A DNA stretch of 64,000 nucleotides from Candidatus Levyibacteriota bacterium (GCA_038253825.1 JBBSGT010000002.1:685-64684); one strand, 5' to 3'; positions 6,055-32,263 are shown, counted from the stretch's first letter. Made by a program: numbers and translations. The notes: generated from the letters alone by a model not told the origin.

Positions 6055-6193
6055 AAGAACTCTGGATGGATAAAGCCAGTGAGGGCTGAATTTGTTGGTT
6101 TTAAAAACAATGTCATTTGCTATCCCAAGTTTGTATCCTTTGTTAATCAGCTCCATAGTTTTGAGGGGACAATCATTCGAGTTGAACTTCCTA

Positions 6194-6862
6194 TTATTTT
6201 GAAGAATTCTTGAGTGCGTCATCAATTTTCGCTTTGAAATCATTGTAGGATAACCCGCCTTCTTGCATGACACCATTAATGAAAAAGGTTGGTGTTGCCT
6301 GAACATTGAGTGCATTTCCATCATCAATATCTTGTTGAATTTTCGCTGCGTATTTACTGCTCGCTACATCACTTTTAAATTTATCTGTGTCAAGTTTGAG
6401 TTCTTTAGCGTATTGCATATAGTAATCCATGGCGTTATTTGTCTCTCCCCACTTACCTTGATTGGAATAAAGTAAGTTATACATCTCAAAGAACTTTCCT
6501 TGTGTTCCGGCTGCTTCAGCTGCTTCAGCTGCGCCTTTTGCATTTGGATGCATAGGAAGTGGGAAGTTGCGGAACACAAAAGTAAGTTGGCCTTTGTAAG
6601 TAGCGCGAAGTTGTTCTATAGTTGGATACGCAGTTCCACATGCTGGACATTGGAAGTCACCAAATTCTACTAATGTTACGGCATTTTTCGCAGTGCCTCT
6701 TATAATATGACTATCTTTACGAAAAAGCGCTTGTGTGTTCTTGACCGGTTGAGTATTTGATGCTGAAGAAGTAGATTTGCCACCAAAAATAAGTGCTGCA
6801 CCGACAACTAATACTAACGTAACTACACTAATTCCGATAAGTACTTTTGTTTCACTTGACAT
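6194..6862 (-). CDS. Membrane-anchored DsbA/BdbD-like thiol:disulfide oxidoreductase.
   Basis: Thioredoxin-fold CxxC motif (FGDFQCPACG) with an N-terminal transmembrane helix. Confidence 0.8.
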   Translation of the reverse strand: MSSETKVLIGISVVTLVLVVGAALIFGGKSTSSASNTQPVKNTQALFRKDSHIIRGTAKNAVTLVEFGDFQCPACGTAYPTIEQLRATYKGQLTFVFRNFPLPMHPNAKGAAEAAEAAGTQGKFFEMYNLLYSNQGKWGETNNAMDYYMQYAKELKLDTDKFKSDVASSKYAAKIQQDIDDGNALNVQATPTFFINGVMQEGGLSYNDFKAKIDDALKNSSK

Positions 6863-6863
6863 A

Positions 6864-7295
6864 TTATTTATCTTTTTTTATCTTCTTCGCATATAATAAC
6901 ATAGTCGCTGTAATAAGTGCAAAAGCAATCATGGATCCGAAAGGAATAGTGATAAAACCAAAAAACTCAATTTGCTTGGATGTGCAGGAAATGCCTTGGA
7001 CACATGGCGCAATACTTTCGGGCAAAATATGAAAATATAAAAGATTATGATAAATCGAGATCAATAACCCCAAAATACTTAAAGGCAAGATATAGGTATG
7101 TAAATCTTTTTGCTTTCGAAGAATACTTACCGCACTAATGAAAACCAATGGGTACATACATATGCGTTGATACCAACAGAGAACGCATGGAGTTAGTTTG
7201 AAAATTTCACTAAATGAAAGACTTGCCAACGTTGAAATCAGCGCAAGCATGAAAGCTACATACGGTAAATATTTAACGTAATTTTTCATAAACAT
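6864..7295 (-). CDS. DsbB/BdbC-like disulfide bond formation protein B.
   Basis: The LTPCVLCWYQRICMYP motif with a second Cys pair, four transmembrane helices, and a 1-nt gap to the downstream DsbA-like gene. Confidence 0.8.
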   Translation of the reverse strand: MFMKNYVKYLPYVAFMLALISTLASLSFSEIFKLTPCVLCWYQRICMYPLVFISAVSILRKQKDLHTYILPLSILGLLISIYHNLLYFHILPESIAPCVQGISCTSKQIEFFGFITIPFGSMIAFALITATMLLYAKKIKKDK

Positions 7296-7310
7296 GAGTA
7301 TTATAACAGA

Positions 7311-7538
7311 TTATTTTTTCCTTTTTTGCATCATCTGCATTAAGCGAAAGACATTAAAGATCCCACCAAGAAATCCGATGATAACTCCCCCTATTGTAAA
7401 AAGTCTTCCTGTGTGGAAAAATGAATCTAAAAATATACCGAGAAAAAGTAAAATAATTACTGGCGTTGCAAGGAGCAAAGCAGTACTCATCCCAATCAGA
7501 ATGAAAAAGGTTGTTTTTGATTTAGGTTGCTCCTTCAT
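7311..7538 (-). CDS. Small two-helix membrane protein, AtpZ/AtpI-like.
   Basis: 75 aa ending in a KRKK tail and carrying GxxxG-type helices (IGGVIIGFLGGIF); same strand and operon as dsbB/dsbA. The overlapping plus-strand ORF 7294..7545 was judged less likely. Confidence 0.45.
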   Translation of the reverse strand: MKEQPKSKTTFFILIGMSTALLLATPVIILLFLGIFLDSFFHTGRLFTIGGVIIGFLGGIFNVFRLMQMMQKRKK

Positions 7539-7598
7539 ACTTTAAATATTATAAAATATCTTGTCTAATAAACAAGATTGTAAACTGTCATTCTGGCG

Positions 7599-8894
7599 TT
7601 AGTAAAGTACGCGAAAACGTATGGTGTGTGGTATTTGCTTTAGTTTTTCTAATACAGTATTGTCATATTCTTTATCAACATCCGTAATGACATATCCTAT
7701 TGCAGAAGTGGTCCTCAGATATTGACTGATGATATTTATTTTATGTTTTGCCATAACTGAATTAATCTGTGCCAAAATCCCCGGTTCATTCTTATGAATA
7801 TGCAAGAGTCGATGTGTCTTTTGATGTTTGGGGAGATTAATACTTGGGAGGGTGAGATTTTTATACGTATCGCCTGTATTAATAAAATTAATTATTCTTT
7901 TGGTTACGCTACTATCTTGAAATGCAGCAATCCCCTTCTCACGAAAGAATAACGGCAAGCTTTCCGAAGGTGACATCTTTGTAATACCAACTACTAGTAA
8001 TCGTTGTGCATTCGTCAATACTTCTTCTGATAACTGGTCCAAACTTTCAACATACAGAATCGAGGCTTGTTTCATTTCCTGAATATGAGACGCATCTGAG
8101 ATTGTTTCTTTGAGCTCTTTTATTTGATACTGTTCTTTCCTTAACATTTTTTTTGTTTCCTCAGAAAGCTGCGGCAAAGCAAAAACTCTAATTCTACTTT
8201 TGGGATATGAAAGCGAGCGAGGTAAATTGTTTACATATAAGAATTCATCAAAGGTTGATGCGATTTCATCAGCTTTTTTTACAATAGGTTCGCGAGAGAT
8301 ATTTTCAGTAAATGCTATAAATTTTTTGGCAAGACCGAGCTTCTTTAACTCATAATCAGTGTAGCCATCCCCTATCATGTATAAATCCCCTTTGAGTTTT
8401 AACGATTTGACAACATTCACTTTCCCTTTATCTTGGCTCATAAGATTTTTCGTATCAATTCCCGTAATATCGTCCTTTTGGTCATAGACGAATGTATTGG
8501 CGAAAATATGATCTGATCGAATACCAAACTGTTTTATTACCGGATAAATAAATTCCTTGAAGCCACCTGAAATAATATAAATATGATCTTTATGTTGTAA
8601 AAAGAAGTTTTTATTGTGCAAGATAGAAAGTGAAATTTTTTGTTTGAGCAGATTACCTACCTCTCTCACTTGGGTTTTACTTCCTGAAAGTAAAGCAATA
8701 CGCTTTTGTAAACTTTCTCCAAATGAGATCTTCCCTTCCATCGCTTGGTTGGTAAGCGATGTTATTTTTTCGAGAAGTTCATTTTTATTTTTCTTATCTT
8801 GCAACACAATTTCAGCAAAGATTTCAAGTCCCTCGCCGGTTATGAACGTACTATCAAAATCGATAAGAAAATATGTTTGTTTTGTTTTTTTCAT
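7599..8894 (-). CDS. HAD-family phosphatase (phosphoserine-phosphatase-like) with a C-terminal ACT domain.
   Basis: HAD motif I FLIDFDSTF (DxD), a later GDGxxD motif (IGDGYTDYE), and an ACT-like C-terminus (ILAQINSVMAKHKINIISQY). The likely start is MKKTKQ at 8894; the track start at 8954 is probably over-extended. Confidence 0.6.
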   Translation of the reverse strand: MKKTKQTYFLIDFDSTFITGEGLEIFAEIVLQDKKNKNELLEKITSLTNQAMEGKISFGESLQKRIALLSGSKTQVREVGNLLKQKISLSILHNKNFFLQHKDHIYIISGGFKEFIYPVIKQFGIRSDHIFANTFVYDQKDDITGIDTKNLMSQDKGKVNVVKSLKLKGDLYMIGDGYTDYELKKLGLAKKFIAFTENISREPIVKKADEIASTFDEFLYVNNLPRSLSYPKSRIRVFALPQLSEETKKMLRKEQYQIKELKETISDASHIQEMKQASILYVESLDQLSEEVLTNAQRLLVVGITKMSPSESLPLFFREKGIAAFQDSSVTKRIINFINTGDTYKNLTLPSINLPKHQKTHRLLHIHKNEPGILAQINSVMAKHKINIISQYLRTTSAIGYVITDVDKEYDNTVLEKLKQIPHTIRFRVLY

Positions 8895-9003: not shown

Positions 9004-9714
9004 TTGAATATGTCACAACTTTCATCAAATTCAACATTTGCGATGTCAGACTTTTCTCAAACAGGATCTTTCAGTTCCGGCTCCAGACTCGGTTCATCTT
9101 CTTCAGTGGGTGGCATGTCTCCAAAAGGCTTTAAGCGCTATTTCAAAAAATCACCGTTCATTCCATTTATAATTATTATGATTGTCGTTTTTGGTATAGC
9201 TATCTTTGCTATCTCTAATGTTATCAGTCGATCAACAAATAATGCTATCCCAAGTTTGGCAAGCACCAATAAACAAGTAAATGTTTCAAAACCGGTTGCG
9301 CAAGAGACTTTGAACAGGTCTTTTGATTTTCCTTTAAAAGATGCCAGCGGAAAAGTTGTAAGTAAGTTGCATTATGTTATTCAAAGTGCAGAGCTGGACA
9401 ATCAAATCATCATTAAAGGACAACAAGCAACAGCAGTACAAGGACGAACATTCTTGGTTCTTAATTTACAAATTACCAATAGTTATGATAAGTCTGTGCA
9501 ATTAAATACACGTGACTATGTTCGTCTGATTGCAAGTAGTTCAACGGAAAAATTAGCAGCTGATATTCACAACGATCCAGTGGAAGTCCAAGCAATCTCT
9601 ACTAAATATACTCGCCTTGGCTTCCCTATCTCTACAGCTGATGCAAGCAATTTAACCTTACAGGTTGGCGAAATTCAAGGCGCGAAACAATCTATAAAAC
9701 TCGACTTGAAATAA
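9004..9714 (+). CDS. Type II membrane-anchored protein with a Ser-rich cytoplasmic N-terminus and an extracellular DUF4352-like beta domain.
   Basis: Ser-rich N-terminus, a single transmembrane helix (FIPFIIIMIVVFGIAIFAI), and a C-terminal beta-rich domain (TFLVLNLQITNSYDKSVQL). Confidence 0.45.
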   Translation: MNMSQLSSNSTFAMSDFSQTGSFSSGSRLGSSSSVGGMSPKGFKRYFKKSPFIPFIIIMIVVFGIAIFAISNVISRSTNNAIPSLASTNKQVNVSKPVAQETLNRSFDFPLKDASGKVVSKLHYVIQSAELDNQIIIKGQQATAVQGRTFLVLNLQITNSYDKSVQLNTRDYVRLIASSSTEKLAADIHNDPVEVQAISTKYTRLGFPISTADASNLTLQVGEIQGAKQSIKLDLK

Positions 9715-9718
9715 GTTT

Positions 9719-9904
9719 ATGAATGATTATTCTACCAAAGAAGCAAGTACAGAGCTACTTGCAGAAATTGCTGAAGCACTAAAAAACATCCGTGGCTGGG
9801 GCAGTGTAGAGATATTTGTACAAGATAATAAAGTAGTACAAATAGTTGAACGAAACATCAAGAAAACCAATCAAATACAAAGTGTCATGAAAACTAGGTC
9901 TTGA
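9719..9904 (+). CDS. YezD/DUF2292 family small protein.
   Basis: 61 aa with the pattern LxxIxEALKNIRxGSVEIxVQDxKVVQIExxxKxx, characteristic of DUF2292. Confidence 0.6.
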   Translation: MNDYSTKEASTELLAEIAEALKNIRGWGSVEIFVQDNKVVQIVERNIKKTNQIQSVMKTRS

Positions 9905-10143
9905 CAACATGATACTGTTTAATATATATTGTTATTAATAACAATGATTAGGTAGGTAAATTTATCAAGTAAACCTAATTGCTGACCGCACACGGAGGCA
10001 TCGTTTTGTTAATAGAATTTTTCTATTAAGAGAAGGATGTCTTTTTTTGTTGGCATAATATATACAAAGTTTATATTTACTATTAATACAGTATAAAAAC
10101 TTATATATGAATAAAAAATACTACAAAAGGGAAATGAAATATC

Positions 10144-10200
10144 GTCAAAACGGAGTTTTCTTCACCTAATTTAATTAGATGAAGTGACCTCCGTTTTTTT
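10144..10200 (+). terminator. Long imperfect hairpin followed by a T-run; terminator or attenuator-like.
   Basis: CAAAACGGAG ... CTCCGTTTTTTT flanking an internal near-palindrome, in the 373-nt leader before the repeat-protein gene. Confidence 0.35.
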
Positions 10201-10277
10201 CTGCTTGCAGAAGAGGACGGAATGAAGTGTTCTCGTCAAAGAGAAACTCTTTATATGAGAGGGGGTGAAAAGAAATT

Positions 10278-11519
10278 ATGACTTTTAATAAACGAATTAC
10301 AACAGCAATCGCAACAGGAGCAGTCTTAGTTAACGCTTTGGCTCCAGTCGCATTTGCGAACACACTTACTGTTTCAGGCAATGGCGCAACATCAAACAGT
10401 GCAGTCAATGTCACAAACAGTTCAAACGCAGTTGTTAATCAAACTAACAACGCAAACATTACTAATAATGTTTCATCAAATGCAACTACAGGTGATAACA
10501 GTTCAAACTTTAACACCGGTGGAAACACTACGATCAGAACAGGTAATGCAAATAACACCGTTAATGTCACAAACGCAGCGAACTTGAATCAAGCTTCTCT
10601 GTCAAATTGTGCATCATGCAACGGCGGAGCAACTAACGTTACTGTTTCAGGTAACGGAGCATTCAGTGATAACGATGGAAGTGTCAATAACACAAGCAAC
10701 GTTTTCCTGAATCAAAATAATGCAGCAAACTTCGACAACAATGTTACGGCTAACTCTACAACTGGTGCAAACGATGCATCGTACAACACAGGTGGAGATA
10801 GTGTTATCTTAACTGGAAACGCAAGAAACACTGTCGGTGTAAGTAACGAAGCTAACGCTAACGTTGCTCAACTCGGCGGCTCTAATGGTACTGCTGGATC
10901 AGCCAGTCTTATCATCAAAGACAACGGTGCATTCAGTGATAACAGTGTAGCTTTGAATCATAACTCAGCAGTTGTGCTGGGTCAAAGTAACGATGCTACT
11001 ATCAGTAACGATGTCGATGCAAATGCTAAAACCGGAAATAACTCATCACAATTCAACACAGGTGGATTCACTGGAATCTCAACTGGAAATGCTACAGACA
11101 AAGTTAACGTAGATAATATGGCTAACTTTAATGCAGCATCACTCGATTGTGGATGTGTTCTAGATGGAACTAACGTTAAAGTAGCAGGAAATGGTGCTGA
11201 ATCTGAGAATTCTGTAGATGCAGCAGCAAACAATGCTGTTTTTAACGATCAAGCTAATAGTGCTGACCTTGGAAACAATGTAAATGGTGATGCTAAAACG
11301 GGTTCTAACGACCTCGGATTTAGTACAGGAGATGTTACAGGTGACCCAGTCATCTACACAGGTGTTTCTAATTCAACCACCGGTGTAAACAACTCAGGTA
11401 ACGTCAATGTCTTAGGCAATGGCGGAACCACTATGCACCTTCCTTGGAACAATACTGAAGTAGGGACTTCATTTGACCTTTCAGGTCTTTGGACTCTTCT
11501 TCACGGCTGGATGGCATAA
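10278..11519 (+). CDS. Secreted N/T/S/G-rich repeat protein, beta-solenoid-like, with about four ~100 aa repeats.
   Basis: Signal peptide (AVLVNALAPVAFA), repeated units (VSGNGAxS ... TGxNxSxFNTGG ... TGNAxNTVNVxNxAN), and a strong RBS (GGGGGTGAAAAG). Confidence 0.7.
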   Translation: MTFNKRITTAIATGAVLVNALAPVAFANTLTVSGNGATSNSAVNVTNSSNAVVNQTNNANITNNVSSNATTGDNSSNFNTGGNTTIRTGNANNTVNVTNAANLNQASLSNCASCNGGATNVTVSGNGAFSDNDGSVNNTSNVFLNQNNAANFDNNVTANSTTGANDASYNTGGDSVILTGNARNTVGVSNEANANVAQLGGSNGTAGSASLIIKDNGAFSDNSVALNHNSAVVLGQSNDATISNDVDANAKTGNNSSQFNTGGFTGISTGNATDKVNVDNMANFNAASLDCGCVLDGTNVKVAGNGAESENSVDAAANNAVFNDQANSADLGNNVNGDAKTGSNDLGFSTGDVTGDPVIYTGVSNSTTGVNNSGNVNVLGNGGTTMHLPWNNTEVGTSFDLSGLWTLLHGWMA

Positions 11520-11593
11520 TAATTTGTTCGGTAGTGGTGCTTTGCTAGCACTTCAGTAAGGCACCCTACCAACAAAGAAAATAAGAATAGAGA

Positions 11594-13888
11594 ATGAGGA
11601 ATGAAGAAAAACAATCTAACTATAACACAATTAATAAACATATGAAAAATTTACTTAAAAAATACATTGCAATAATCACAATCACAGCTGTACTTTTCTT
11701 ACAGGTAAGTCCTGCATTGGTACGGGCGGATGATGTATCTCCAGCACCAACTGTTTCTACAACACCTCCTATAGAACCAACAGCGCCGATTGCACCGACC
11801 GCTCCTGCAGCACCTGATCAAACATCTGGTAATACTGCAAATATCATACCAACTCCTACGCCTGATGCTGTGGCTGTTGCTCGAGATGCACAAAAAGCTG
11901 CAGCAAAAGCAGCATGGGAAGCAGCTTATTATGCTACCCCAACTCCTACTCCAGCAGGGGGCAATACAGGAGTCACTTCAAATGGAAATAACGGAAATAC
12001 AGCAATAAGTACAGGAATTGCAAACAATAATGGTTCAACTGTCACGACAGCGAACACAAATGGAGCAACCGTGCTGGGTGGAACAGGAAAAGGTTCAGGA
12101 TCATCAGCAGTTGTAAATAATGGCAATGGTGTAGGATCAAATAATAATGGTTCTTCGGCTTCAATTGTAAATAGTGACACTAATCAGAACAACAGTGCGC
12201 AGGTGGGTAATGTTTTAAATCAATCATCAACAACTGGATCAAATAATTCCTCAATAAATGTTGGTAATACAAGTATCAACTCCGGTAACTCGAACACTTC
12301 AGGAACAGCAGTTACAGCTGTTAATACGAATATGGCAGGGGTGCAAGTCTCTCAATTTGATGTCAATAATGATACAACGGGAGATCTCGTTCTTACACCA
12401 GAGATGTTTGCAGCCAATTGTGTCTCAAATTGTGGAGGAACAGGCAAGGTCTCCAATACAGGCAACGGGGCAAATTCAAATAATACGGCAGATGCGACAC
12501 AACAAATAAATGGTACGACATTTCAAAACAACGACGCAGCTGTCGGCAATAATATGACTTTGTCCGCAAATTCAGGTAATAACGCTACTTCCTATAACAC
12601 TGGTGGTGACAATACAATTACTACCGGGAATGCCAATGTTTCAGCAAATTCACTCGTATTTGCCAACAACAATATCGCAGGAAATGTTACTTACGGCGTC
12701 GTCAACCTCTACGGCAATCTTACCGGTGATATCGTTATTCCAGATTTTACGAATGGACCGGTCACCGGGACTGGTACTGGTACAACAACAGCAAATACTA
12801 ATAATGGAGCCGGTTCTACGAATAATACTGGTTCTGATAATATCGCTAACTCAAATACCTCCCAGAACAACGACGCAACCATTAACAATAATTTAATTAT
12901 CAATGGCACCACGGGTGGTAATAGTGCAAACGGAACAACAGATGGCAACACTACTCTCGTCACAGGAAGCACTAAGGTTGATGCAAATGTTCTTAATGTT
13001 GCAAATAATAACGTGGACGGTGGTAATATGTGGCTTGTTCTCGTCAACGATGCCGGGAATTGGGTAGGTCAGTTACTCGGTGCACCTGCAGGAGCTAATG
13101 CTGCTGCATCAGCAGGAACAACACTTTCTTATGGGCCTGACGGACAAATTACTGCCTCAAATGGTAGCAATGGAGCTGGCTCTACGAACAATACAAATGT
13201 GTCTAGTTCCACCAATAGTACAAACGGACAAAACAATAACGGAGTCATTAATAATACATTGAACTTATCCGCAAATACTGGCAATAATCAAGCAAATTAC
13301 AATACCGGTGGAAACAACACTATCAAAACCGGTAATGCAAACGTCGTTGCAAATATGGTCAACTTCGTCAACAATAACATCACAGGTACAGGTCATCTCT
13401 ATGTTGTTGTCGTGAATGTGTTCCATGATTGGCTGGGCAATTTAGTAACTCCAGGACAAACTGATCCAAATGATCCTGCCAAGGCAAAAAGCAACACGAC
13501 ACAAAGCGCACAAGCACTACAACCTACAGCAGCACCAACGAATAATACGACAACAACAACTGGACAGACAACTACTGACAGTGTCACACCTTCTGATGCT
13601 CCAGCTGGTACTGAGATAGCAACAAACAGTGGATCATCAACAATTTACTCTTCATCACATAACCGTGCAATAGTACATGGTGGTACAACCGGGAATTTAT
13701 CAAATGCTAAAGTAGCTGGTGCTAGTACCGACAATCCGAATGACAGTCACAATGCAGCTACAGTCCTGGGTGCACAAGATAGTAAAAAGATATTGACTAT
13801 TAACTTAGCATGGCTCTTACTCATTGTTCCGGTTATGCTCTTTGGATTACTTGGAAAGAAGCTACTCGTAAAACGCTTCGCAAAATAA
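11594..13888 (+). CDS. Large surface repeat protein of the same family, with a Pro/Thr/Ala linker and a C-terminal transmembrane anchor.
   Basis: Signal peptide or anchor, the same NTGG/TGNA repeats, a T/N-rich stretch, and a C-terminal hydrophobic helix followed by a basic tail (LLIVPVMLFGLLGKKLLVKRFAK). Confidence 0.7.
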   Translation: MRNEEKQSNYNTINKHMKNLLKKYIAIITITAVLFLQVSPALVRADDVSPAPTVSTTPPIEPTAPIAPTAPAAPDQTSGNTANIIPTPTPDAVAVARDAQKAAAKAAWEAAYYATPTPTPAGGNTGVTSNGNNGNTAISTGIANNNGSTVTTANTNGATVLGGTGKGSGSSAVVNNGNGVGSNNNGSSASIVNSDTNQNNSAQVGNVLNQSSTTGSNNSSINVGNTSINSGNSNTSGTAVTAVNTNMAGVQVSQFDVNNDTTGDLVLTPEMFAANCVSNCGGTGKVSNTGNGANSNNTADATQQINGTTFQNNDAAVGNNMTLSANSGNNATSYNTGGDNTITTGNANVSANSLVFANNNIAGNVTYGVVNLYGNLTGDIVIPDFTNGPVTGTGTGTTTANTNNGAGSTNNTGSDNIANSNTSQNNDATINNNLIINGTTGGNSANGTTDGNTTLVTGSTKVDANVLNVANNNVDGGNMWLVLVNDAGNWVGQLLGAPAGANAAASAGTTLSYGPDGQITASNGSNGAGSTNNTNVSSSTNSTNGQNNNGVINNTLNLSANTGNNQANYNTGGNNTIKTGNANVVANMVNFVNNNITGTGHLYVVVVNVFHDWLGNLVTPGQTDPNDPAKAKSNTTQSAQALQPTAAPTNNTTTTTGQTTTDSVTPSDAPAGTEIATNSGSSTIYSSSHNRAIVHGGTTGNLSNAKVAGASTDNPNDSHNAATVLGAQDSKKILTINLAWLLLIVPVMLFGLLGKKLLVKRFAK

Positions 13889-14257: not shown

Positions 14258-15859
14258 CTAGTTTATTCGTTTAAATATGAGGATATCTTGGGAGGTGTAG
14301 ACTTTCTTAAAATATTTATAAAGATCACCTTGAATTTTTGAGTTATTGTAAATTGCAGACCAAACTGCATCATTCTTTTGCATGACAATCCAGGTTGCAT
14401 ATTTTTCGGGATGTTTTAGCGATTCATCCCAATATGGTTTGTTTCCTACATAAATTACCTTTTGCATAGGAATTGTGCTTTGGGTAATACTTATCGTCCG
14501 AGCATAATCGTCAATGAGTACGAATCCCCCATCGTAATGTTCGTTAATAAATTGCTCTACGTTGGTCGGAACTTTATTGGCTGAAAGGCCATGTGTACCA
14601 TCAGCAAGCGTTATGACAGGGGTATCGCCCATAAAGAAAAGTGCTGTTTGTAATATAAGTAACATGATAAGCACAAGTTTCAAACTCTTATGTACTCTTG
14701 CAACAAGATAGCCAAAGAATACAGCCATAAAAGGAATTATCATAACACCATAGCGAACATTGAATAAATGATAATCAAAATGCTGTGGTGTCAAACCAGG
14801 AATAAAGATAACTGCCTGACCCAAAAAGAGTGAGACTACGTTAAAAACAAAAGGAACAAATAAGACCAAGAGTGTTCCAATTCTTGCTTTAGCAGAATTA
14901 CTTGCCAGAAAAACTATCGACCCAACAAGAGAAATAACGAAAATAAAGAATCCAGTGTTTGCTAGTGCTGTGTAGACATAATAAATAATTGATAAGAGCA
15001 GGTTATGATATGCAGGTAATTCACCTTTTGCCATCCAAGCGAGTTGTTGAGATTTTGCAGAATAAATACTATCAGTAAAATATAAAGGATCACCCAAAAT
15101 TAAACCGCCCCAAACGAACCAGCAAAGGATACCAAATCCGGCCAGGGTCACAAACAAAATCATATCTCCTTTTTGTCTGACAAAAAGTTTACGATTAAAA
15201 ATACCAGGAGAGATAACAATAAGTGTTTCGAAAAGAACGAGAAACCAACCATCATATCGTGTTAAAGATGCACCGAAAGCAAAAAGACCTGCAAGTATCA
15301 GCGAGGATAAAACGTGATTTCCATGAAGGTATTTAACAAAATAATAAGATGACAAGATGAAGAAAGCAATAAGGGGTATTTCAGTCATTGGGGTTGATTG
15401 CAAATATAAAATATTAAGATTCGTGGCAAAAATGGTAAATGCAATAAAAGATGCAAAGTTATGTTGTGTGATGAGTCTTGTGAGTTTAAAGATATAAATA
15501 CAAGCAATGACATAAAAAATACCTGAGATCAGTGAACCTGCAAGACCTGTACGCCATAAAGGATCTGCTATAACAAATGGCAGCATTAAAATATGCGTCA
15601 TCGGTAACCAAATGCCACCGAGTTGCGCAAACCCAGGTGTTAAACCGTTCACTACTTTTTTAGCGATATTGATATGTGATTCAGCGTCGCCGTAAGCAAG
15701 TATCCAGTGATTGATATACGAAATATACGTAGCAATAAACGCAGCACATATCGACAGGAGAAAAATCATTTTTTCCATATTTGTCGAAAAGAAAAGTTTT
15801 ATCTTTTTATTGAAACTCTCCATAAATGTTTGTTGTCTGGTGATAATAAAACTTTGCAT
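14258..15859 (-). CDS. Polytopic membrane protein, family A paralog 1; putative GT-C-like glycosyltransferase.
   Basis: Carries the motif YGDAESHINIAKKVVNGLTPGFAQLGGIWLPMTHILMLPF shared with 27182, 48397 and 50008, about 11 transmembrane helices, and a soluble C-terminal domain. Confidence 0.65.
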   Translation of the reverse strand: MQSFIITRQQTFMESFNKKIKLFFSTNMEKMIFLLSICAAFIATYISYINHWILAYGDAESHINIAKKVVNGLTPGFAQLGGIWLPMTHILMLPFVIADPLWRTGLAGSLISGIFYVIACIYIFKLTRLITQHNFASFIAFTIFATNLNILYLQSTPMTEIPLIAFFILSSYYFVKYLHGNHVLSSLILAGLFAFGASLTRYDGWFLVLFETLIVISPGIFNRKLFVRQKGDMILFVTLAGFGILCWFVWGGLILGDPLYFTDSIYSAKSQQLAWMAKGELPAYHNLLLSIIYYVYTALANTGFFIFVISLVGSIVFLASNSAKARIGTLLVLFVPFVFNVVSLFLGQAVIFIPGLTPQHFDYHLFNVRYGVMIIPFMAVFFGYLVARVHKSLKLVLIMLLILQTALFFMGDTPVITLADGTHGLSANKVPTNVEQFINEHYDGGFVLIDDYARTISITQSTIPMQKVIYVGNKPYWDESLKHPEKYATWIVMQKNDAVWSAIYNNSKIQGDLYKYFKKVYTSQDILIFKRIN

Positions 15860-15863
15860 ACTT

Positions 15864-18080
15864 TTAAATACCTACCATATTTTTCGTTGCCAATTCTTTC
15901 TTTACTACTTGTTTCACTTGATCACTTGTTTCTTTAAGTTTAAGATGCAAACCGTGTTTTGTTTTTGACCAATGATGGGGTTTTACAATAAGTTGATATA
16001 AAGCAATCCATGATGCAATACTCATTGTTAGCCAGTAAAGTGGAACCAGAAAGACATACTGTATAAGATCGTAATGACCATGTTTTGCACAACCGATCAT
16101 GTAGTAATAAAGATATAAGAAATTACCCACTACCAATGAAAATACACCCATATAAAGAACAGGTGCTGGGAAAAAGGATTCAATAAAATCACCGACAAAA
16201 GGACGGAAAATAAAATAAGTCAACGTAATAAACCACATTAACGGATTGATAAAAAGTGAAAGTACTTTTCCACCTATTACCAGTTGGAATGTAATAAGAT
16301 GTACACGTTTATTACTTGGCAAAAAAGTTTTCAGATTTCTGGTATGAACGAGGTATGTTTGCATGTATCCCTTAATCCATCGTGAACGTTGTGCAAACCA
16401 GTTCATAAGGCTGCTATTTGCTTCTTCCAGTGTCTCTGAATCAACAATGGCTGTCGTATAACCTTCTTTAACCAACCGAATTCCAAGATCAGCATCTTCT
16501 GTCACATTAAAACTATCCCATCCTTTGAGTTTGTGTAAGTCTTTGGTTCTAAAATGGTTTGAAGTTCCACCAAGAGGAATTGGGGCTCCAATAGATTGCA
16601 ACCCCGTTAAAACAAGATCAAACCAAAGTGAATATTCAGCGGTAAAGACTCGAGTTAAGAAATTTTGTTGGGGATTATAGAAATTTAATTTGGCTTGGAC
16701 ACAAATCGTATTTCTTCGAGCTTTCGCAAAAGCTATGACTGATTTTTTTAGCTGCAATGGATCAGGTGCATCTTCAGCATCATAAATTACTGCATACTCT
16801 CCTGTCGCTTTGGTCAAACCATAATTACAAGCTTTTGGCTTGGTTTTTGGATAAGAGTGAGGAACAATAACAACTTCAAAATAAGAAGGCAAGTTAAATT
16901 TTGCGACTTGATCAATCGTCTCTTTATCATTTGCTTCCAACAGCAACATAACTTGTAATTTATCTTTGGGATAAATAAGTTTACTCATAGAGTTAACGAA
17001 TTGCGGGATCACCTGCCATTCCTTATAAAGTGGGCAAAAGACTGTGTAGCTAGGCCAAATGTGGTCAGGAATAGCTTGAATTTCTTCGATGGATACTTTA
17101 ATTTCTGCCGGTTTTACAAAGCTTCTGGTAATCAAATAAAGATTAAATAAGAGATCTATAAAATAAAGAAATGTTAAGACTGCGATAAATATAATAATAG
17201 TAGTGTGCCAGTTAATAATAAGTCCGGTCAGAAGTATAAGCAATGTGACAATTATATAGACTCCTTGTTGAAAGGTAATTCTCTGAAAAGCTGTCTCTGC
17301 TGGCTTTAATAATGAATAGTGAATGAATTCTTTTCCGTTATAGTGAAATCCATTTCCTTTTACTTTCCTTGTGTTGCGATGAAATGGGATAATTTCTTTT
17401 CCTTGAAATTTCATTTTTATGGCATTAATGCCGATTTCCCAACTCGATTTTAGTAAATGAATTTTTGTTTCACCTGAGGTGCGTTTTGCTAGTCGCATAT
17501 TTATGGTATCGATTTTGTAACCAGCATCTAAACTTTTTTTCAGAAATTCTAAATCAAATGTCCAAGGTGAAGGATAAATATGCAGTCGTTCTATAATTTC
17601 TTTCTTAAATATTTTTAAGCCTGACTGAATATCGAAGTTCAGTCCATGGAGAATTTTACCAAAAATATAAAGAAAGCTGCGGCTAAAAAAATTACGAATG
17701 AAAGTAGTATTACTGAGAATACGATTCGCTACAACGACATCAGCCCCTCGATTAATTTTATCAAGCATTTCAGGAATTGATTCAGGTTGATACTGCAAAT
17801 CACCGTCGATCATACAAAGAAGATCATATTGAGCATAACTAAATCCTTCAAGAAGCGACTGGGCCTTGCCTGGGATTCCTTGTTTAAGATATAGACGGAC
17901 AGGAAAACGCTGAGCAAAGTGTTTGACGACTGATTGTGTTTTGTCGCTTGAATGATCATCGACCACAATGATCTCGTAAGATATATTTTTGTGGTAAAGC
18001 GTATTATTAATACGCTCAATAAGATGTCCTATATTCCCTACTTCGTTCCAAGTAGGAATGATAATTGAAAGGCTTTGCAT
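15864..18080 (-). CDS. Bifunctional glycosyltransferase: N-terminal DPM1/ArnC-like GT2 fused through transmembrane helices to a processive synthase-like GT2.
   Basis: N-terminal IIIPTWNE...VVDDHSSD...DGDLQY, and a C-terminal D, D, QRSRW (QxxRW) set with YDAEDAPD. Confidence 0.8.
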   Translation of the reverse strand: MQSLSIIIPTWNEVGNIGHLIERINNTLYHKNISYEIIVVDDHSSDKTQSVVKHFAQRFPVRLYLKQGIPGKAQSLLEGFSYAQYDLLCMIDGDLQYQPESIPEMLDKINRGADVVVANRILSNTTFIRNFFSRSFLYIFGKILHGLNFDIQSGLKIFKKEIIERLHIYPSPWTFDLEFLKKSLDAGYKIDTINMRLAKRTSGETKIHLLKSSWEIGINAIKMKFQGKEIIPFHRNTRKVKGNGFHYNGKEFIHYSLLKPAETAFQRITFQQGVYIIVTLLILLTGLIINWHTTIIIFIAVLTFLYFIDLLFNLYLITRSFVKPAEIKVSIEEIQAIPDHIWPSYTVFCPLYKEWQVIPQFVNSMSKLIYPKDKLQVMLLLEANDKETIDQVAKFNLPSYFEVVIVPHSYPKTKPKACNYGLTKATGEYAVIYDAEDAPDPLQLKKSVIAFAKARRNTICVQAKLNFYNPQQNFLTRVFTAEYSLWFDLVLTGLQSIGAPIPLGGTSNHFRTKDLHKLKGWDSFNVTEDADLGIRLVKEGYTTAIVDSETLEEANSSLMNWFAQRSRWIKGYMQTYLVHTRNLKTFLPSNKRVHLITFQLVIGGKVLSLFINPLMWFITLTYFIFRPFVGDFIESFFPAPVLYMGVFSLVVGNFLYLYYYMIGCAKHGHYDLIQYVFLVPLYWLTMSIASWIALYQLIVKPHHWSKTKHGLHLKLKETSDQVKQVVKKELATKNMVGI

Positions 18081-18582
18081 ATTGTATTTACTTGTGAAAA
18101 CAAGATAGAGTTAGTCATAGTAGGCAGTAGAAACGATTATTTCGTTAAGCAAAAGTATATAGTATTTCTCCCAATAAAGCAAGCCTATAGCAAAATGTAG
18201 TAATTTTTTACAATAATATTAGTAAGTTCAATAATGAAAATAGGTATAACTTTCTGTTAGCTACTGAGGATAGAGAGCTTGTATTTTTTTAAAAAACTTT
18301 AATTTTACTTTATCAACTTAGAGTAATTAATATAATGTTTATATTTTTCACAGAGAAATTTCCACGCAAAATATCATACTATCAGATATTTGTCATAATT
18401 CCTTATTGACATGAGGTAAAACTTTCTGTTATCTTATGTACTAAGACTGCCCCAAAAATAGGAGAATTTTAATTTACTACTTTACTATAAGACGGTTATA
18501 GTGTATAATACTCAAAATTAGGATTGGATAATTGCTGATGAAGCTAAAAAAATAATTAGCTTGTAAAAAATCCAGTCCTTTT

Positions 18583-21500
18583 ATGATAATTTATCAGCTC
18601 ATAGTATCATACATTGCAAAATATATGTCAAATAAAATAAAATTATTCAGTGTTATTATACCTGTCTATAACGAAATTGGTAATATAGCGCAGTTTCATC
18701 AACACTTACTAAAAACACTTACCTCGTATAAAAAACGTTTCGAAATCATCTATATCGATGATAATTCGACAGATGGCACGTATGAATGGTTACAAAGTAT
18801 TTCCCTCGCGCCTACTATTAAGGTAATTTTAAAAAATGGCATTAAAGGTAAAGCATATTCACTCATCCAAGGTTTTGATGTAGCTAAAGGAGATGCTTTT
18901 GTCATGATTGACGGTGATCTTCAGTACCCACCGGAAAAAATTCCAGAGATGATTGATGCGCTACAAATATCTGATATTGTGGTAGCGGAACGAAAGAAAT
19001 ATAAAGATAGCACATTACGCAAATTTCTTAGTAAAGGATTCAAGACAGTATTTGGGAAAATGATGTTTGGTCTGAATACTGATATTCAATCGGGTCTGAA
19101 AGCCTTTACAAAAGAAGTCTATCAAACAATTCAGTTTCAGCCTGTTTCTCCATGGACATTCGATCTTGAATTCCTCTACCGTTCACAACAAGCAGGATTT
19201 AGTATTAAAAATGTATCAATCATCTTTGCTCCACGTTTGAGTGGCGAATCAAAAGTGAATGCTCTTAATCAATCATGGGAAATTGGAACCAACGCACTTT
19301 CAATAAAAATGAAAAGAAAGCTTTATTTGCCAATTAAGGCAGTAAAGGGTTCGATGCGTGGTGCAGGTATTGGATATAAAAAGAAAAAATATATTACCCA
19401 TACGACTTTACCTGCTTCCCTGTCTGCTATCGAAACCTTCTCTCTGTCACAGAAAATATTTTTTCTTGGATTTCCAGTTTTGTTAATCCTTGCTCTTTTT
19501 ATGTTCCCATTGCCTGCGGCAAGAACGATCGTAGGGGTTTTGAGTATGCTCTACTTCATTGATGCCCTCTTTAACGTATTTGTGGTAACTCGCAGTTTGC
19601 AAAAAGATCATGACATTAAAGTAAGTGATGATGAACTTTCACTCCTCGATGAAAGCAAATTGCCACTCTATTCTATTCTTTGTCCTTTATATAAAGAAGC
19701 GCACGTTGTACCACAATTTTTGGAAGGTATCGCAAAGCTTGACTATCCAAAAGATAAATTAGATGTGATGTTTCTTCTTGAAGAGGATGATCTAGAAACT
19801 ATTGCAGCCTTTGGTCAGATGACACTTCCTTACTATGCCCGTACAGTTATTGTTCCTGATTCACAACCAAAAACGAAACCCAAAGCTTGTAACTACGGAT
19901 TGTCTTATGCAAAGGGTAAATATCTTGTTATTTTCGATGCAGAAGATTTGCCAGATCCCCTACAACTGAAAAAGGCAGTTATCGGATTCAAAAAAGTTCC
20001 GGCAGATATTAAATGTTTACAAGCAAAGTTGAGTTATTATAACTCACGTCAGAATTTGCTTACTCGCTTCTTTACTGCAGAGTATGCTTTATGGTTTGAT
20101 GTCACACTGCCAGGTTTGCAATCGCTTAACTCAGCATTGCCGTTGGGTGGTACGAGTAACCATTTCGAGACAGCAAACTTACGCGAACTTGAAGGATGGG
20201 ATCCATTTAACGTAACAGAAGATGCTGATTTGGGTGTCCGGTTGTTCAAACATGGGTACCGTACCGCAATTATCGATTCAACAACCTACGAAGAAGCTAC
20301 AAGTGTGACAAAAAACTGGTTACGACAACGCTCCCGATGGCTTAAAGGTTACATGCAAACGTATTTAGTGCAAATGCGCAACATTAACTCATTTGTAAAG
20401 AATAAAGGTGTCTGGCATACCATAATCTTCCAATTGACAGTTGGTGGCAAGATCCTTTTCGTTCTTTTGAATCCATTTATGTGGATTATCACTATTTTGT
20501 ATTTCAGTGCGTATTCTATTTTTGGTCCGGTGATGCAGGAGATCTATCAACCTCCACTTTCCTATTTCGCAGTCTTTTCGTGGATATTTGGCAACTTTAT
20601 GTTCTTATATTGTTACATGATTGCCGTAGGAAAACGTGGTCAATGGGATCTTGCAAAGTATGTTTTGTTAATTCCGTTTTACTGGGTCCTTATGAGTACA
20701 GCTGCTATGGTTGGTTTGTATCAGCTTATCCTGAAACCTCATTATTGGGAAAAGACAATTCATGGATTCCATTTGACCAAAAAGAATCTACCGGTACCAG
20801 CGGTCAAACCGGTTGGACAGCCAATTGCACAACCTGTGTATGTTGCTGCAGCAACACCAGTAAATAAAATTAAAGATACCCCTTTTGTGCTTACAATGCC
20901 TTCACAAATAAATGTTTCAACATTTATCTTACGATGGTTACCACTCTTTGCGATATTAAACACCGATTTGGTCTTGGCACGGTTTTTCTTACCATATGAA
21001 GATGCACAACTTTATATTGTTCTTTCGTTATTTGGCAAAGCTGTTTTCATACTCAGTCAATTCCTTTCCAACGTCTTAACAGCAGCAACTTCTAAAAAGA
21101 GAGTCAGTAAAGGATATTTATATCGATTACTTTTCTTTACGTTCTTATTCAACTGGATCGGATTTGTGGTATTTGGGTTGGAAGGTTCATATACTATTCC
21201 AGCATTGCTTGGAAATACCTATACAGGCATTATTCCATACATGGGCTATTATCTTTTTGGACTTACTTGTTTGGGCTTGACGAATCGTCTTACAACCTTT
21301 AATCTCTACAAGAAAAAATATTCATATACGATGTTATCGGTAGCGATCATCTTGTTACAAGTACCCTTCATTATTCTGCACCATGAAACAGTTTATAACT
21401 TCGTACGCATCTTTGCGTACTTTGGTTCTATTAATCTTTTCGTCCTCGTTGTCCTTCAGATGAGCGTTGTTAAAAACCTCATTATGGAGAACAACTTTAT

Positions 21501-22713
21501 CAGCATATTTAAATTATTTGATAAGCAAGCAAGCAAAAAAGCATGGAATCAAAACAACATGCGTATTCTAATCTTTAACTGGAGAGATACAAAACACATA
21601 TATGCCGGGGGCGCTGAAGTGTATATTCATGAGTTAGCACAACGTTGGGTAAAAAACGGCAATAAAGTAACACTCTTTTCAGGAAATGACAACAATAATT
21701 CTGATTATGAAATAGTGGATGGTGTTGAAATATTTAGACGAGGTGGCACATATACTATCTATATATTTGCATTCCTCTATTACCTGCTCAAATTCCGTGG
21801 CAAATATGATGTCATAATCGATTGTGAGAATGGAATTCCTTTCTTCACACCTTTGTACGCGAAAGAACAAGTTATCTTGCTCGTTCATCATGTCCACCAA
21901 GAAATATTCCGTAACTTCTTGCGCTTTCCATTGAGCATAATTGCTGAACTTTTGGAAGGTAAGATGATGCCACTTGTTTATCAAAACAAAAACGTTGTCA
22001 CAGTCTCAGCTTCTTCACAGAAGGATATCTTTAAGCTCGGATTTACCAATGCGGGTAATATTGAAATTATTCCAAATGGTGTTTCTTCCGGCTTATTTGT
22101 TGACTATCCTAAAACCGATAACCCATCATTTGTCTATTTAGGCAGACTGAAAGAGTATAAAAATATTGATGTCGCCATTAAAGCTTTCGCAAAAGTGTTG
22201 CGTATTCACAAGAAAGCTACACTGGCAATTGTTGGTTCTGGAGAAAGTTTCCCCGTTTTAGCAGATCTGGTTACTGATTTAAATATCCATCACGCAATTA
22301 AATTCTATGGTCGTGTAAGTGAAGCTGAAAAGGCAAAATTATTAGCAAAAAGTTGGGCTGCAATTCAGCCTTCCCAAATTGAAGGCTGGGGAATAACCGT
22401 TATCGAAGCAAATGCAGCAGGTACACCTGTGATTGCCTCCAATGTTAATGGGTTGCAAGACTCAGTTGTCGATGGGCAAACAGGATTACTTGTTCAAGCT
22501 GGAAATGTAACACAATTTGCAAATGCTATGATGAAGATAGCAGAAGATGATGATGTTCGAATTTCACTTTCACAAGAAGCTCAATTATGGGCAAAGAAGT
22601 TCGATTGGGATTCAAGTGCTACAGCTTTTTATGGTCTCATCGGTAAGAACTTGGGTCAAGGTGCAATCCAGCCTTCATATACAGAAGTTGCTTTTACTTC
22701 ATCAGAAAAATAA
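18583..22713 (+). CDS. 1376 aa multi-domain glycosyltransferase: DPM1-like GT2, processive GT2 (QxxRW), an ~8-helix polytopic membrane module, and a C-terminal GT4.
   Basis: IIPVYNE...DDNSTDGT...DGDLQY; YDAEDLPD...QRSRWLKGY; C-terminal GT4 motif EGWGITVIEANAAGTPVIAS (EX7E). Confidence 0.8.
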   Translation: MIIYQLIVSYIAKYMSNKIKLFSVIIPVYNEIGNIAQFHQHLLKTLTSYKKRFEIIYIDDNSTDGTYEWLQSISLAPTIKVILKNGIKGKAYSLIQGFDVAKGDAFVMIDGDLQYPPEKIPEMIDALQISDIVVAERKKYKDSTLRKFLSKGFKTVFGKMMFGLNTDIQSGLKAFTKEVYQTIQFQPVSPWTFDLEFLYRSQQAGFSIKNVSIIFAPRLSGESKVNALNQSWEIGTNALSIKMKRKLYLPIKAVKGSMRGAGIGYKKKKYITHTTLPASLSAIETFSLSQKIFFLGFPVLLILALFMFPLPAARTIVGVLSMLYFIDALFNVFVVTRSLQKDHDIKVSDDELSLLDESKLPLYSILCPLYKEAHVVPQFLEGIAKLDYPKDKLDVMFLLEEDDLETIAAFGQMTLPYYARTVIVPDSQPKTKPKACNYGLSYAKGKYLVIFDAEDLPDPLQLKKAVIGFKKVPADIKCLQAKLSYYNSRQNLLTRFFTAEYALWFDVTLPGLQSLNSALPLGGTSNHFETANLRELEGWDPFNVTEDADLGVRLFKHGYRTAIIDSTTYEEATSVTKNWLRQRSRWLKGYMQTYLVQMRNINSFVKNKGVWHTIIFQLTVGGKILFVLLNPFMWIITILYFSAYSIFGPVMQEIYQPPLSYFAVFSWIFGNFMFLYCYMIAVGKRGQWDLAKYVLLIPFYWVLMSTAAMVGLYQLILKPHYWEKTIHGFHLTKKNLPVPAVKPVGQPIAQPVYVAAATPVNKIKDTPFVLTMPSQINVSTFILRWLPLFAILNTDLVLARFFLPYEDAQLYIVLSLFGKAVFILSQFLSNVLTAATSKKRVSKGYLYRLLFFTFLFNWIGFVVFGLEGSYTIPALLGNTYTGIIPYMGYYLFGLTCLGLTNRLTTFNLYKKKYSYTMLSVAIILLQVPFIILHHETVYNFVRIFAYFGSINLFVLVVLQMSVVKNLIMENNFISIFKLFDKQASKKAWNQNNMRILIFNWRDTKHIYAGGAEVYIHELAQRWVKNGNKVTLFSGNDNNNSDYEIVDGVEIFRRGGTYTIYIFAFLYYLLKFRGKYDVIIDCENGIPFFTPLYAKEQVILLVHHVHQEIFRNFLRFPLSIIAELLEGKMMPLVYQNKNVVTVSASSQKDIFKLGFTNAGNIEIIPNGVSSGLFVDYPKTDNPSFVYLGRLKEYKNIDVAIKAFAKVLRIHKKATLAIVGSGESFPVLADLVTDLNIHHAIKFYGRVSEAEKAKLLAKSWAAIQPSQIEGWGITVIEANAAGTPVIASNVNGLQDSVVDGQTGLLVQAGNVTQFANAMMKIAEDDDVRISLSQEAQLWAKKFDWDSSATAFYGLIGKNLGQGAIQPSYTEVAFTSSEK

Positions 22714-22725
22714 TTATAAAGATTT

Positions 22726-23616
22726 ATGAAACATCTACCTAGTATCTCAATTGGTATCCCGGCTTATAACGAAGCAAGAAATATTAAAAAACTTCTTAAG
22801 TCGCTCCTCGCGCAAAAGGAAGTTGGTTTCCGTTTAGAATCTATTATTGTCGTTTCTGATGGAAGTTTTGATACAACAGGAATCCAAGTAAAGTCTCTCA
22901 AAGACAAACGTATTAAACTCTGGGATGACCATAAGCGACTTGGAAAATCAGCTCGGCTTAATCAACTTTTTCGCAAAAATTCAGCTGATGTATTAATACT
23001 CGCAGACGCGGATATCAAAATTGCCGATCCTAACCTTTTAAGTACCATAATAAATGATAGCGATTTTAAACATGAAGGTATTGTCGCCGTAAATGCCACA
23101 CCAACAAGGGGAAAAACATTTATCGAAAATTCACTCAATGCCGGGGCTTTTGCTGTTAAACAAATGTCGGAAGACTGGAGAAACGGTAATAACTATTTAT
23201 CCTTCAAAGGTTGTTTTCTGGCTTTGGATAAAAATTTAGTGAAGAAAATTTCTATACCTGCAACTCTTGTTAATAATGACGCATTTCTTTACTTTTCAGC
23301 GCTTGCGTATAATTACACACCTGCCTACAGAAAAAATTGCGTCGTTTATTATCGTTCACCTGCAACACTGGATGATCATATTAAACAATCATCAAGATTT
23401 AAAAGCTCAAGTGAAGAATTAAAACAATATTTCAAACTGGATTTAGAAAAAGAATATAAAACACCCATTGCAATTATGCTTAGTAGCATACTACAATCAT
23501 TAATAAAGAGACCGGTCTTTTTCCTTGCTTATCTCGGCATTAATAGTATTTCTCAAATCAAAAAGCAAACCAATATTAAGAGTACATGGAGTATTGCTTC
23601 TTCAACAAAACAGTAA
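22726..23616 (+). CDS. Family 2 glycosyltransferase, DPM1-like.
   Basis: N-terminal ISIGIPAYNEARNI motif, with DGS/DAD aspartates. Confidence 0.7.
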   Translation: MKHLPSISIGIPAYNEARNIKKLLKSLLAQKEVGFRLESIIVVSDGSFDTTGIQVKSLKDKRIKLWDDHKRLGKSARLNQLFRKNSADVLILADADIKIADPNLLSTIINDSDFKHEGIVAVNATPTRGKTFIENSLNAGAFAVKQMSEDWRNGNNYLSFKGCFLALDKNLVKKISIPATLVNNDAFLYFSALAYNYTPAYRKNCVVYYRSPATLDDHIKQSSRFKSSSEELKQYFKLDLEKEYKTPIAIMLSSILQSLIKRPVFFLAYLGINSISQIKKQTNIKSTWSIASSTKQ

Positions 23617-31889: not shown

Positions 31890-32263
31890 CTCCTTTCATT
31901 AGAATTTACTTCAAAGATTTTCGATTAGTTAGTATGCTTTTCAAAAAAAATAATTTGTCCTGTGTGTATTGAACCTATGAGCACTTATGAGAAATTTCTT
32001 GGCTCAATCTTCAAAGTGCAATACTATAAAAACAGAACAAACTCAGAGACAAAAGAGGCTGAGTTCCGCACTTCACAGAACCCAGCCTCAAGCACAAAAA
32101 AGCTTTTGAATTCCCCCAAAAACAGAACTCAAAAGCTTAAATAATTTCTACTTGGGCAGTTAATCATTTTGGTAAGTTTAGAATAAATTAATTGCTCTGC
32201 TTTGTCAATTGATGCAAATGTAATACAACTGTATCAAAGTATAATTTCTTGATAATCTTTGGC

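Follow-up and report, generated by a model that had tools for sequence, protein, structure and literature searches.

An uncharacterised family of exported all-beta repeat proteins in Microgenomates genomes and the conserved RNA elements of its gene cluster

A stretch of 64,000 nt from a metagenome-assembled genome of Candidatus Levyibacteriota (Levybacteria; 36% G+C), hereafter the window, encodes A413, B764 and C200, three proteins that belong to an uncharacterised family of exported all-beta repeat proteins. The family is part of an envelope protein system that spans the lineage, has no structural match and comes with unusual RNA features backed by covariation; where genome records with the family are named, nearly all of them are from Microgenomates lineages of the Candidate Phyla Radiation (CPR). 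The reading that we favour, at a probability of about one half, is a cell-coat system in which free A-type and C-type proteins (A413 and C200 in the window) would assemble on paralogs tethered to the membrane (B type, B764 in the window) and to the cell wall (X type, found in related genomes).

Three paralogs and a conserved gene cluster

An initial annotation had proposed three repeat paralogs with signal peptides, and all three open reading frames (ORFs) were found to be true paralogs (Table 1), the coordinate given for C200 being right and its strand minus. Composition-corrected BLASTP related A413 to C200 at 2e-31, A413 to B764 at 1e-8 and B764 to C200 at 5e-7. A413 is identical to the NCBI protein MGI8419896.1, whose only name there is 'beta strand repeat-containing protein', and C200 is identical to MGI8419909.1, both on one contig of 67.8 kb. 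Because of the latter identity, the ATG at 31880 is almost certainly the C200 start; for B764, Met17 is probably a likelier start than the annotated one. Each N-terminus, read from the sequence, has the layout expected of the proposed signal peptides, with a basic n-region followed by a hydrophobic core and a site of the A-x-A type (cleavage at ...ALAPVAFA/N in A413, ...AVSPAAFA/N in C200 and ...SPALVRA/DD in B764).

A hidden Markov model (HMM) of the repeat, built from A413, identified four units in A413 (residues 30-120, 121-210, 211-300 and 301-382), four in B764 (residues 173-253, 286-369, 400-482 and 523-604) and two in C200, and matched no other ORF in the window. The unit measures ∼85-90 aa overall and has the consensus V.V.GNGA.S.N.V.V.N..N....QNN.A.I.NNV...A.TG.N...FNTGG.T.I.TGNAN..VNV.N.AN.N.A, ten columns of which are invariant in all ten repeats of the window. 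The initial figure of ∼100 aa per repeat is therefore an approximation, the unit being ∼90 aa long in A and C and ∼115-120 aa in B, where each unit carries one extra hydrophobic extension of ∼40 aa (consensus NNN(I/V).G......VVN..G.W.G.LV.P).

Ortholog lengths are narrowly distributed: A has 240 close homologs, nearly all of 400-430 aa (the 120 listed span 389-485 aa), B has 328, most of ∼700-800 aa and centred around 750, and C has 119, most of ∼195-205 aa and centred around 198. When representatives of clusters at 50% identity (among 1.84 billion) were searched, the repeat profile matched 2,849 clusters at E<=1e-3, of which 527 reached E<=1e-30, and the architectures in the family comprise 2, 3, 4, 5 and up to 10 units. 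A low-complexity artefact is ruled out by the invariant columns, the composition-corrected homology and the retention of ortholog length across dozens of species, so the repeats cannot be put down to compositional bias, the alternative that had been raised alongside the proposed HMM search. Neither Pfam (E<=1) nor NCBIfam contains a family that matches A413, B764 or C200, PDB sequence searches with both family profiles gave chance-level matches only, and no paper on the repeat family was found in the literature; the family is thus as unrecognised as it had first appeared.

The three proteins differ in how they end. Mature A413 is a 38-kDa protein with a pI of 4.05 and only 7 Lys+Arg; its C-terminal tail reads LPWNN...FDLSGLWTLLHGWMA, and the A-type C-terminus in general (LPGNW...FDLSGLW..L) is too short for a membrane span. 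B-type proteins end in a conserved segment consisting of (I/V)NLAW, a transmembrane (TM) stretch and basic residues. The Pro/Thr-rich stalk and C-terminal TM anchor initially described for B764 are both present, as is an N-terminal Pro-rich linker. An LPXTG signal is absent from A413, B764 and C200, B764 having the TM segment and basic tail only. Conserved Cys pairs occur as C-x2-C and C-x-C in A-type proteins and as C-x3-C in B-type proteins, and DsbA- and DsbB-like genes (6194-7295, minus strand) lie just upstream of the cluster, both here and in a locus of the closest clade (L001). Given the Cys pairs and the Dsb genes, A- and B-type proteins may be disulfide-bonded exoproteins.

The genomic setting was examined by scanning one genome per species, which yielded 79 loci; other counts below draw on up to 80-84 related loci. 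Named records with the cluster are Levy-, Gottesman-, Ames-, Davies-, Roizman- and Woesebacteria. The gene order U236-DUF2292-A-B was found in ∼75 of the 79 species-level genomes. By tblastn, 76 of 80 related loci have a U236 homolog immediately before the A-type gene, and U236 has no Pfam match. The DUF2292 gene stands upstream of the A-type gene in most loci; no solved relative of its product was found by PDB sequence search, and no paper on DUF2292 function was found. A single A-type ORF per ∼9 kb examined was present in nearly every locus, syntenic and of fixed length. Following B in at least 48 of 84 loci is the X paralog, a protein of ∼390 aa with three repeats and a Pro/Gly stalk that ends in LPATG, LPVTG or LPITG, then a hydrophobic segment and basic residues. 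In both loci whose neighbours were read (L082, X gene at 6186-7328, minus strand; L083, X gene at 7139-8245, minus strand), a sortase gene comes directly after X and a C-type gene stands beside the sortase. Many cluster-bearing records are titled 'uncultured Gammaproteobacteria bacterium' (binchicken/SRP co-assemblies), labels that look like placeholders or errors.

Predicted fold of the repeat unit

AlphaFold models were obtained for A413 (33 sequences; predicted local distance difference test score, pLDDT, 52.8) and for the core of B764 (121 sequences; pLDDT 69.2, predicted template modelling score 0.67). Within the B764 core, 136 residues reached a pLDDT of >=90; these are concentrated in the second half of each unit, where the best 10-residue blocks of every repeat scored 84-96. 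Both models are all-beta and built of repeated modules, in keeping with the beta-rich, repetitive fold that had been anticipated. According to DSSP, each repeat comprises one strand of 31-33 residues, a TG.N...NTGG loop and two or three further strands of 4-19 residues.

Residue couplings were analysed per class over 1,840 repeat instances. A pooled mean-field analysis was set aside because gapped and invariant columns, together with subfamily signal, dominated the result. The per-class signal was modest, with a handful of pairs at z>3. The top couplings (47-55, 38/40-64, 33-69 and 32-70) share an i+j of ∼102, the pattern of antiparallel pairing centred on NTGG, and one additional coupling joined positions 8 and 49. 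The coupled pairs thus correspond to an antiparallel hairpin with its turn at NTGG, which agrees with the confident part of the model. Model and couplings together indicate a unit that is probably built around a long antiparallel beta-hairpin turning at the invariant NTGG.

These results do not bear out the beta-solenoid fold that was initially proposed. Structure prediction gave long strands, with low confidence in the first half of the longest, and not short regular rungs. The couplings were mostly antiparallel and contained no consistent parallel ladder at ∼22 residues, a few weak ones falling at offsets of 23-26 (31-56, 33-56 and 25-49). Foldseek searches of the PDB and of BFVD (viral) returned no match at E<0.01, and hence no beta-helix, with TM-scores of ∼0.05. 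The nominal top entries for the A413 model were curli CsgA and FapC at E 0.03 and a TM-score of ∼0.05, which is noise level; the B764 model gave nothing with E below 3, FapC appearing again at E 3.4.

The fold results also bear on whether the proteins form a functional amyloid or a beta-solenoid fibre, with free subunits templated by an anchored nucleator in the manner of curli or chaplins. That reading shares the logic of free and anchored homologs, and it would account for the Asn/Gln/Gly ladders and for strands that alternate polar and apolar residues. CsgA and FapC are the nominal, non-significant top entries for A413, but at such E values and TM-scores they carry no weight. No Curlin or chaplin Pfam match was obtained, and strands of 31-33 residues with antiparallel couplings are not what parallel stacking at ∼22 residues would give. 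Couplings computed at the level of the repeat are blind to stacking between whole repeats or subunits, so that cross-beta stacking of whole units lies outside their reach. On balance we consider an amyloid or solenoid fibre improbable.

Comparison with the known fibre systems is in line with this assessment. Curli CsgA/CsgB and Pseudomonas FapC resemble the present family in their imperfect Asn/Gln/Gly repeats of alternating polarity, and curli also pair a major subunit with a homologous surface-bound partner. They differ in that no Curlin repeat (PF07012) was matched here, in that antiparallel hairpins are predicted in place of strand-turn-strand rungs of 19-23 aa, and in that no CsgG/CsgE/F-type secretion genes are involved; the organisms with the present family are held to lack an outer membrane. 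The chaplins of Streptomyces (ChpA-H) include long sortase-anchored members and short free ones that assemble on the cell surface. X with its LPXTG anchor, B with its TM anchor and the free A and C resemble them solely in how the set is organised: there is no chaplin/DUF320 Pfam match, the unit is ∼90 rather than ∼40 aa long and Asn/Thr/Gly-rich rather than hydrophobic, a membrane-anchored member exists here, and the organisms do not form aerial hyphae.

A candidate cell coat and other readings

In the coat that we favour, the same module would be supplied free and acidic by A (four units) and C (two units), on Pro-rich stalks held at the membrane through a C-terminal TM segment by B, and, in most relatives, on a Pro/Gly stalk with an LPXTG signal by X, which would be tethered to the wall through sortase. 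Free subunits would dock on the tethered paralogs by like-with-like contacts between beta modules, and the product would be a protein coat, S-layer-like or fibrillar, with A as its bulk component. Throughout a whole class the proteins keep their copy number, length and gene order, and so they look like parts of one surface structure and not like a set of variable adhesins. With one syntenic copy of constant length per locus, A itself resembles a core structural component more than it does an adhesin that evolves fast, and the composition of its mature form is S-layer-like (acidic, few Lys+Arg). The near-perfect Shine-Dalgarno sequence (SD), structured leader, A-B hairpin and exoprotein leader motif described below suggest, as far as sequence can tell, the expression expected of a major exoprotein. 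Co-assembly of the paralogs, abundance of A, formation of a lattice and a coat as the end product are what we infer for this system.

S-layers have been reported on some CPR cells. Gram-positive S-layer proteins resemble A in being acidic, exported proteins with few basic residues (A is ∼40 kDa and encoded once per locus), and A shares with several S-layer genes a strong SD and a 5' leader that is long and structured. They differ from A in that no SLH or known wall-binding domain was found here in Pfam or NCBIfam, so that attachment through the anchored paralogs would be required. As for the wall anchor, X of related genomes has the LPxTG motif, hydrophobic stretch, basic residues and adjacent sortase of canonical LPXTG sortase substrates, whereas none of the three window proteins has the signal and B uses its (I/V)NLAW TM anchor.

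Several points weigh against a coat. AlphaFold confidence is poor in the first half of every repeat; the literature searched assigns the S-layers of CPR cells to no gene; surface proteins of fixed length can also be receptors or adhesins; and the X gene is absent after B764, leaving the three-anchor scheme incomplete within the 64 kb of the window. A sortase gene and a probable sortase substrate do lie in the window, convergent to C200. The product of 30027-30683 is secreted, Cys-rich and equipped with a Pro/Thr linker, and ends in VLASTG, a hydrophobic segment and KK; these features, and the overlap of its gene with the start of the sortase gene, make it a likely LAxTG-type sortase substrate. 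The segment before its anchor (KVQGAS...) is similar to KVAGAS... in B764.

The proteins could instead be independent adhesins or host-recognition proteins of an episymbiotic CPR cell, the paralogs serving as alternative display formats that do not co-assemble. Their export, their Asn/Thr-rich repeats, their stalks and their anchoring in the membrane or through sortase recall Gram-positive adhesins, and CPR bacteria are, according to a review, widely held to live attached to hosts. Adhesins, however, tend to have a patchy distribution and to differ in sequence and in the number of repeats, whereas A, B and X retain length, repeat number and gene order across class-level diversity; A and C, having no anchor, would moreover be lost unless bound to something on the cell. 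We regard this as a possible reading, about half as probable as the coat.

The initial annotation had further suggested that these were beta-solenoid surface proteins glycosylated at N-x-S/T sequons by the products of neighbouring genes. Sequons are indeed numerous (22 in A413, 34 in B764 and 13 in C200), and large GT2/GT4 glycosyltransferase genes lie at 15864-23616. The counts nevertheless match those of 5,000 shuffles of the same composition (z 1.36, 1.19 and 1.97, respectively), the enrichment being non-significant and for C200 marginal (p 0.04). Of the neighbouring genes that were scanned (9004-9714 and 14258-34823), none gave an STT3/PglB-type match, and in the one other locus inspected the glycosyltransferase block is not beside the cluster. 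An ORF convergent to B764 (14258-15859, minus strand) is multi-span hydrophobic with YGDAESH near its N-terminus and has a GT-C-like look; it has no homolog in 80 related loci by tblastn. With the solenoid fold itself unsupported, we consider this explanation very improbable. O-glycosylation of the Thr/Pro stalks is possible. The GT-C-like ORF is one of several of ∼530 aa without a Pfam match, at 14258-15859 (minus strand) and 25606-28810 (plus strand).

CPR/Patescibacteria make up a large share of bacterial diversity, almost nothing is known of the makeup of their cell surface, and that surface is their meeting place with hosts, phages and minerals. Near-universal in the species-level genomes recovered, strictly organised, sortase-linked and without a domain model or structural relative, the repeat family is a concrete and testable candidate for the envelope coat of these ultra-small bacteria. 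A fuller proposition would make A, B, X and C the surface layer of Microgenomates (OP11), with a beta-hairpin fold that has no solved relative and with CPR-specific RNA control exerted by the leader motif (perhaps read by DUF2292) and by a 5'-3' pairing that closes the mRNA; taken as a whole, we think it rather unlikely.

RNA elements around the A-type gene

A strong hairpin follows directly after the A stop codon in 71 of 71 loci (median minimum free energy -29.7 kcal/mol over 80 nt, median z -6). Its apical loop reads GCACUUC, the exact complement of a box, GAAGUGY, that lies in the 5' untranslated region (UTR) ∼45-90 nt before the A ATG and, in the window, ∼1.3 kb from the loop. Among 81 distinct loci, 60 have both box and loop, 13 have neither and 8 have one only. 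Pairing was possible in 465 of 483 cells, compared with 452.7 ± 1.7 after shuffling, and 0 of 5,000 shuffles reached the observed value. The 7-bp helix is 96.2% paired, a figure inflated by the consensus matching through which both elements were located; such matching does not explain the compensatory changes, which include double changes in four of the pairs. The outer pair of the helix, for example, is CG in 47 loci, UG in 11, UA in 5 and AU in 1, and the covariation score lay above all 500 shuffles and all slid controls. These patterns suggest that box and loop may engage in a 5'-3' interaction within the A mRNA.

The same two sequences were considered as a DNA inverted repeat (GAAGTGC/GCACTTC) for a binding protein or an invertase. 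This was judged less likely because U pairs with G in 11 loci, as would suit pairing of RNA but not identity at the DNA level, and because 7 nt is very short for a recombinase site. A GAAGUGC box (32068-32074, minus strand) that is followed by a hairpin also occurs 192 nt upstream of C200; the 3' hairpin of C200 itself lacks a GCACUUC loop, and the long-range pairing thus seems specific to A-type genes. Pairing between 5' and 3' UTRs is known from bacterial mRNAs such as S. aureus icaR and B. subtilis hbs. As in these, a short conserved stretch in the 5' UTR of the A message matches, as its complement, an element farther 3' in that message, and compensatory changes accompany the match. Unlike in these, the 5' partner is not the SD, and the 3' partner is the apical loop of a hairpin between the two genes of an operon-like A-B pair.

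Farther upstream, the leader contains a motif of the form CCG-N4-CGGA[AG]GC, which is present as a single copy in 63 of the 79 loci analysed and in the window, always on the coding strand and upstream of the A-type gene. Its presence tracks that of DUF2292: 62 loci have both, 13 have neither and 6 have only one. In the window and in the closest clade (L001-L007), the motif is followed by a hairpin and a T-run, an arrangement that comes in addition to the second, more widespread hairpin, P1. In P1, which is terminator-like, the base (AAACGGAGG/CCUCCGUUU) is invariant and the upper stem covaries; across Microgenomates this hairpin is conserved ∼100-190 nt upstream of the A-type ATG. Its pattern ACGGAG...CTCCGTTTT was found in 47 related loci and in the window; in the related loci the pattern is confined to the coding strand and to the region before the A-type ATG, and in the window its palindromic base matches the opposite strand too. 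RNAalifold, applied to 20 loci, gave 23 pairs for P1, 14 of them with compensatory changes. The P1 U-run in several loci overlaps a promoter-like spacing, TTGTTT-17-TAAAAT.

The A413 leader as a whole is long and structured (z -4.7, RNAfold). Rfam 15 gave no match in the window at gathering thresholds, and only chance-level matches for 9880-10300 at E<=10. A leader peptide translated from the GGAGG of the motif was rejected at this locus, there being no conserved ORF at that place before A-type genes, and an extended pairing of the motif's 5' flank (GACCGC) with a downstream GCGG was dropped for want of covariation. Two sigma-70-like matches from a consensus scan suggest putative promoters, one of them upstream of the leader motif (Table 1).

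The ribosome-binding-site contexts of A413 and C200 had been described as nearly the same and taken as a sign of a duplicated expression cassette. The strings themselves are real (GGGGGTGAAAAGAAATTATG at 10261-10280 for A413 and GGAGGTGAAAAGAATG before C200), and the 10-mer common to them, GGTGAAAAGA, occurs in the window only at these two genes (expected 0.17; 2 of 100 shuffles reach 2). Little is shared beyond a strong SD, however: the common part consists of the consensus SD GGAGGTGA and an A-rich spacer, both of which A orthologs in other lineages also have, and outside it the two upstream regions cannot be aligned. The near-identity therefore stands, and the case for a duplicated cassette is weak.

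Table 1. Coordinates of genes, protein segments and nucleic acid elements in the window (nt unless stated otherwise)
Feature	Position	Strand	Remarks
U236, cluster gene 1	9004..9714	+	236 aa; S/G-rich N-terminus, one TM, extracytoplasmic beta-rich domain
DUF2292 (YezD-like), cluster gene 2	9719..9904	+	61 aa; Pfam PF10055, E 5e-8
Putative sigma-70-like promoter TTGACA-18-TATATT	9901..9930	+	11/12; consensus scan; upstream of leader motif
Leader motif GCTGACCG-CACA-CGGAGGC	9981..9999	+	single copy in window
First hairpin GGCATC...GATGTC + T7	9997..10048	+	terminator-like; directly 3' of motif; RNAfold 9975-10280
Second putative sigma-70-like promoter TTGGCA-16-TATATT	10050..10077	+	10/12; consensus scan
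Hairpin P1 AAAACGGAG...CTCCGTTTTTTT, then U-run	10147..10200	+	78 nt before A413 ATG
5'-UTR box GAAGTGT (consensus GAAGUGY)	10224..10230	+	complementary to post-stop hairpin loop
Small variable hairpin right after box	10230..10245	+	differing sequence; present in nearly all loci
Shine-Dalgarno GGGGGTGA (family consensus GGAGGTGA)	10261..10268	+	9 nt before A413 ATG
A413, exported 4-repeat protein	10278-11519	+	signal peptide residues 1-27
A413 repeats	10365-10637, 10638-10907, 10908-11177, 11178-11423	+	repeat HMM
A413-B764 intergenic hairpin, no U-run	11523..11577	+	apical loop GCACTTC at 11548-11554
B764, membrane-anchored paralog	11594-13888	+	probable true start Met17 at 11642
B764, N-terminal part			signal peptide; Pro-rich linker (∼residues 47-125); partial unit + 4 extended repeats
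B764 repeat block	12110-13405	+	residues 173-604; repeat HMM
B764, C-terminal part			Pro/Thr stalk; conserved (I/V)NLAW TM segment (∼nt 13799-13855); basic tail
Probable sortase substrate	30027-30683	+	218 aa; LASTG, hydrophobic segment, KK; convergent to C200
Sortase gene	30673-31224	+	Pfam Sortase, E 1e-18; convergent to C200
C200, exported 2-repeat paralog	31287-31880	-	197 aa from ATG at 31880

The reach of the leader motif beyond the repeat family was examined in one exact-word metagenome scan for CTGACCGCAAACGGAGG, which returned 122 instances: 67 upstream of repeat-family genes, 14 at contig ends and 41 elsewhere. Many of the 41 have the look of chance matches, being embedded in GC-rich sequence with no hairpin or T-run after them. 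Other secreted proteins are preceded by about ten AT-rich, CPR-like instances of GCUGACCG-N4-CGGAGGC; they comprise TasA-like proteins whose signal peptides are of the SipW type, a subtilisin and repeat proteins distantly related to the family; the window proteins themselves have no NCBIfam match to the SipW-type signal peptide (TIGR04088). Before the TasA-like genes and one C-type gene, the GGAGG of the motif is the SD of an ORF of 11-18 codons that ends at a terminator. The motif thus seems to mark an exoprotein regulon, and it may act through attenuation, protein binding (perhaps by DUF2292) or mRNA stabilisation. Through the conserved leader elements, gene regulation and the architecture of mRNAs become approachable for a first time in these not-yet-cultured organisms. 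Six loci without DUF2292, the motif or P1 (L016, L037, L042, L053, L057 and L068) have repeated (A/C)TCTTAC boxes in the short intergenic region upstream of the A-type gene, which may represent a different promoter or regulator site.

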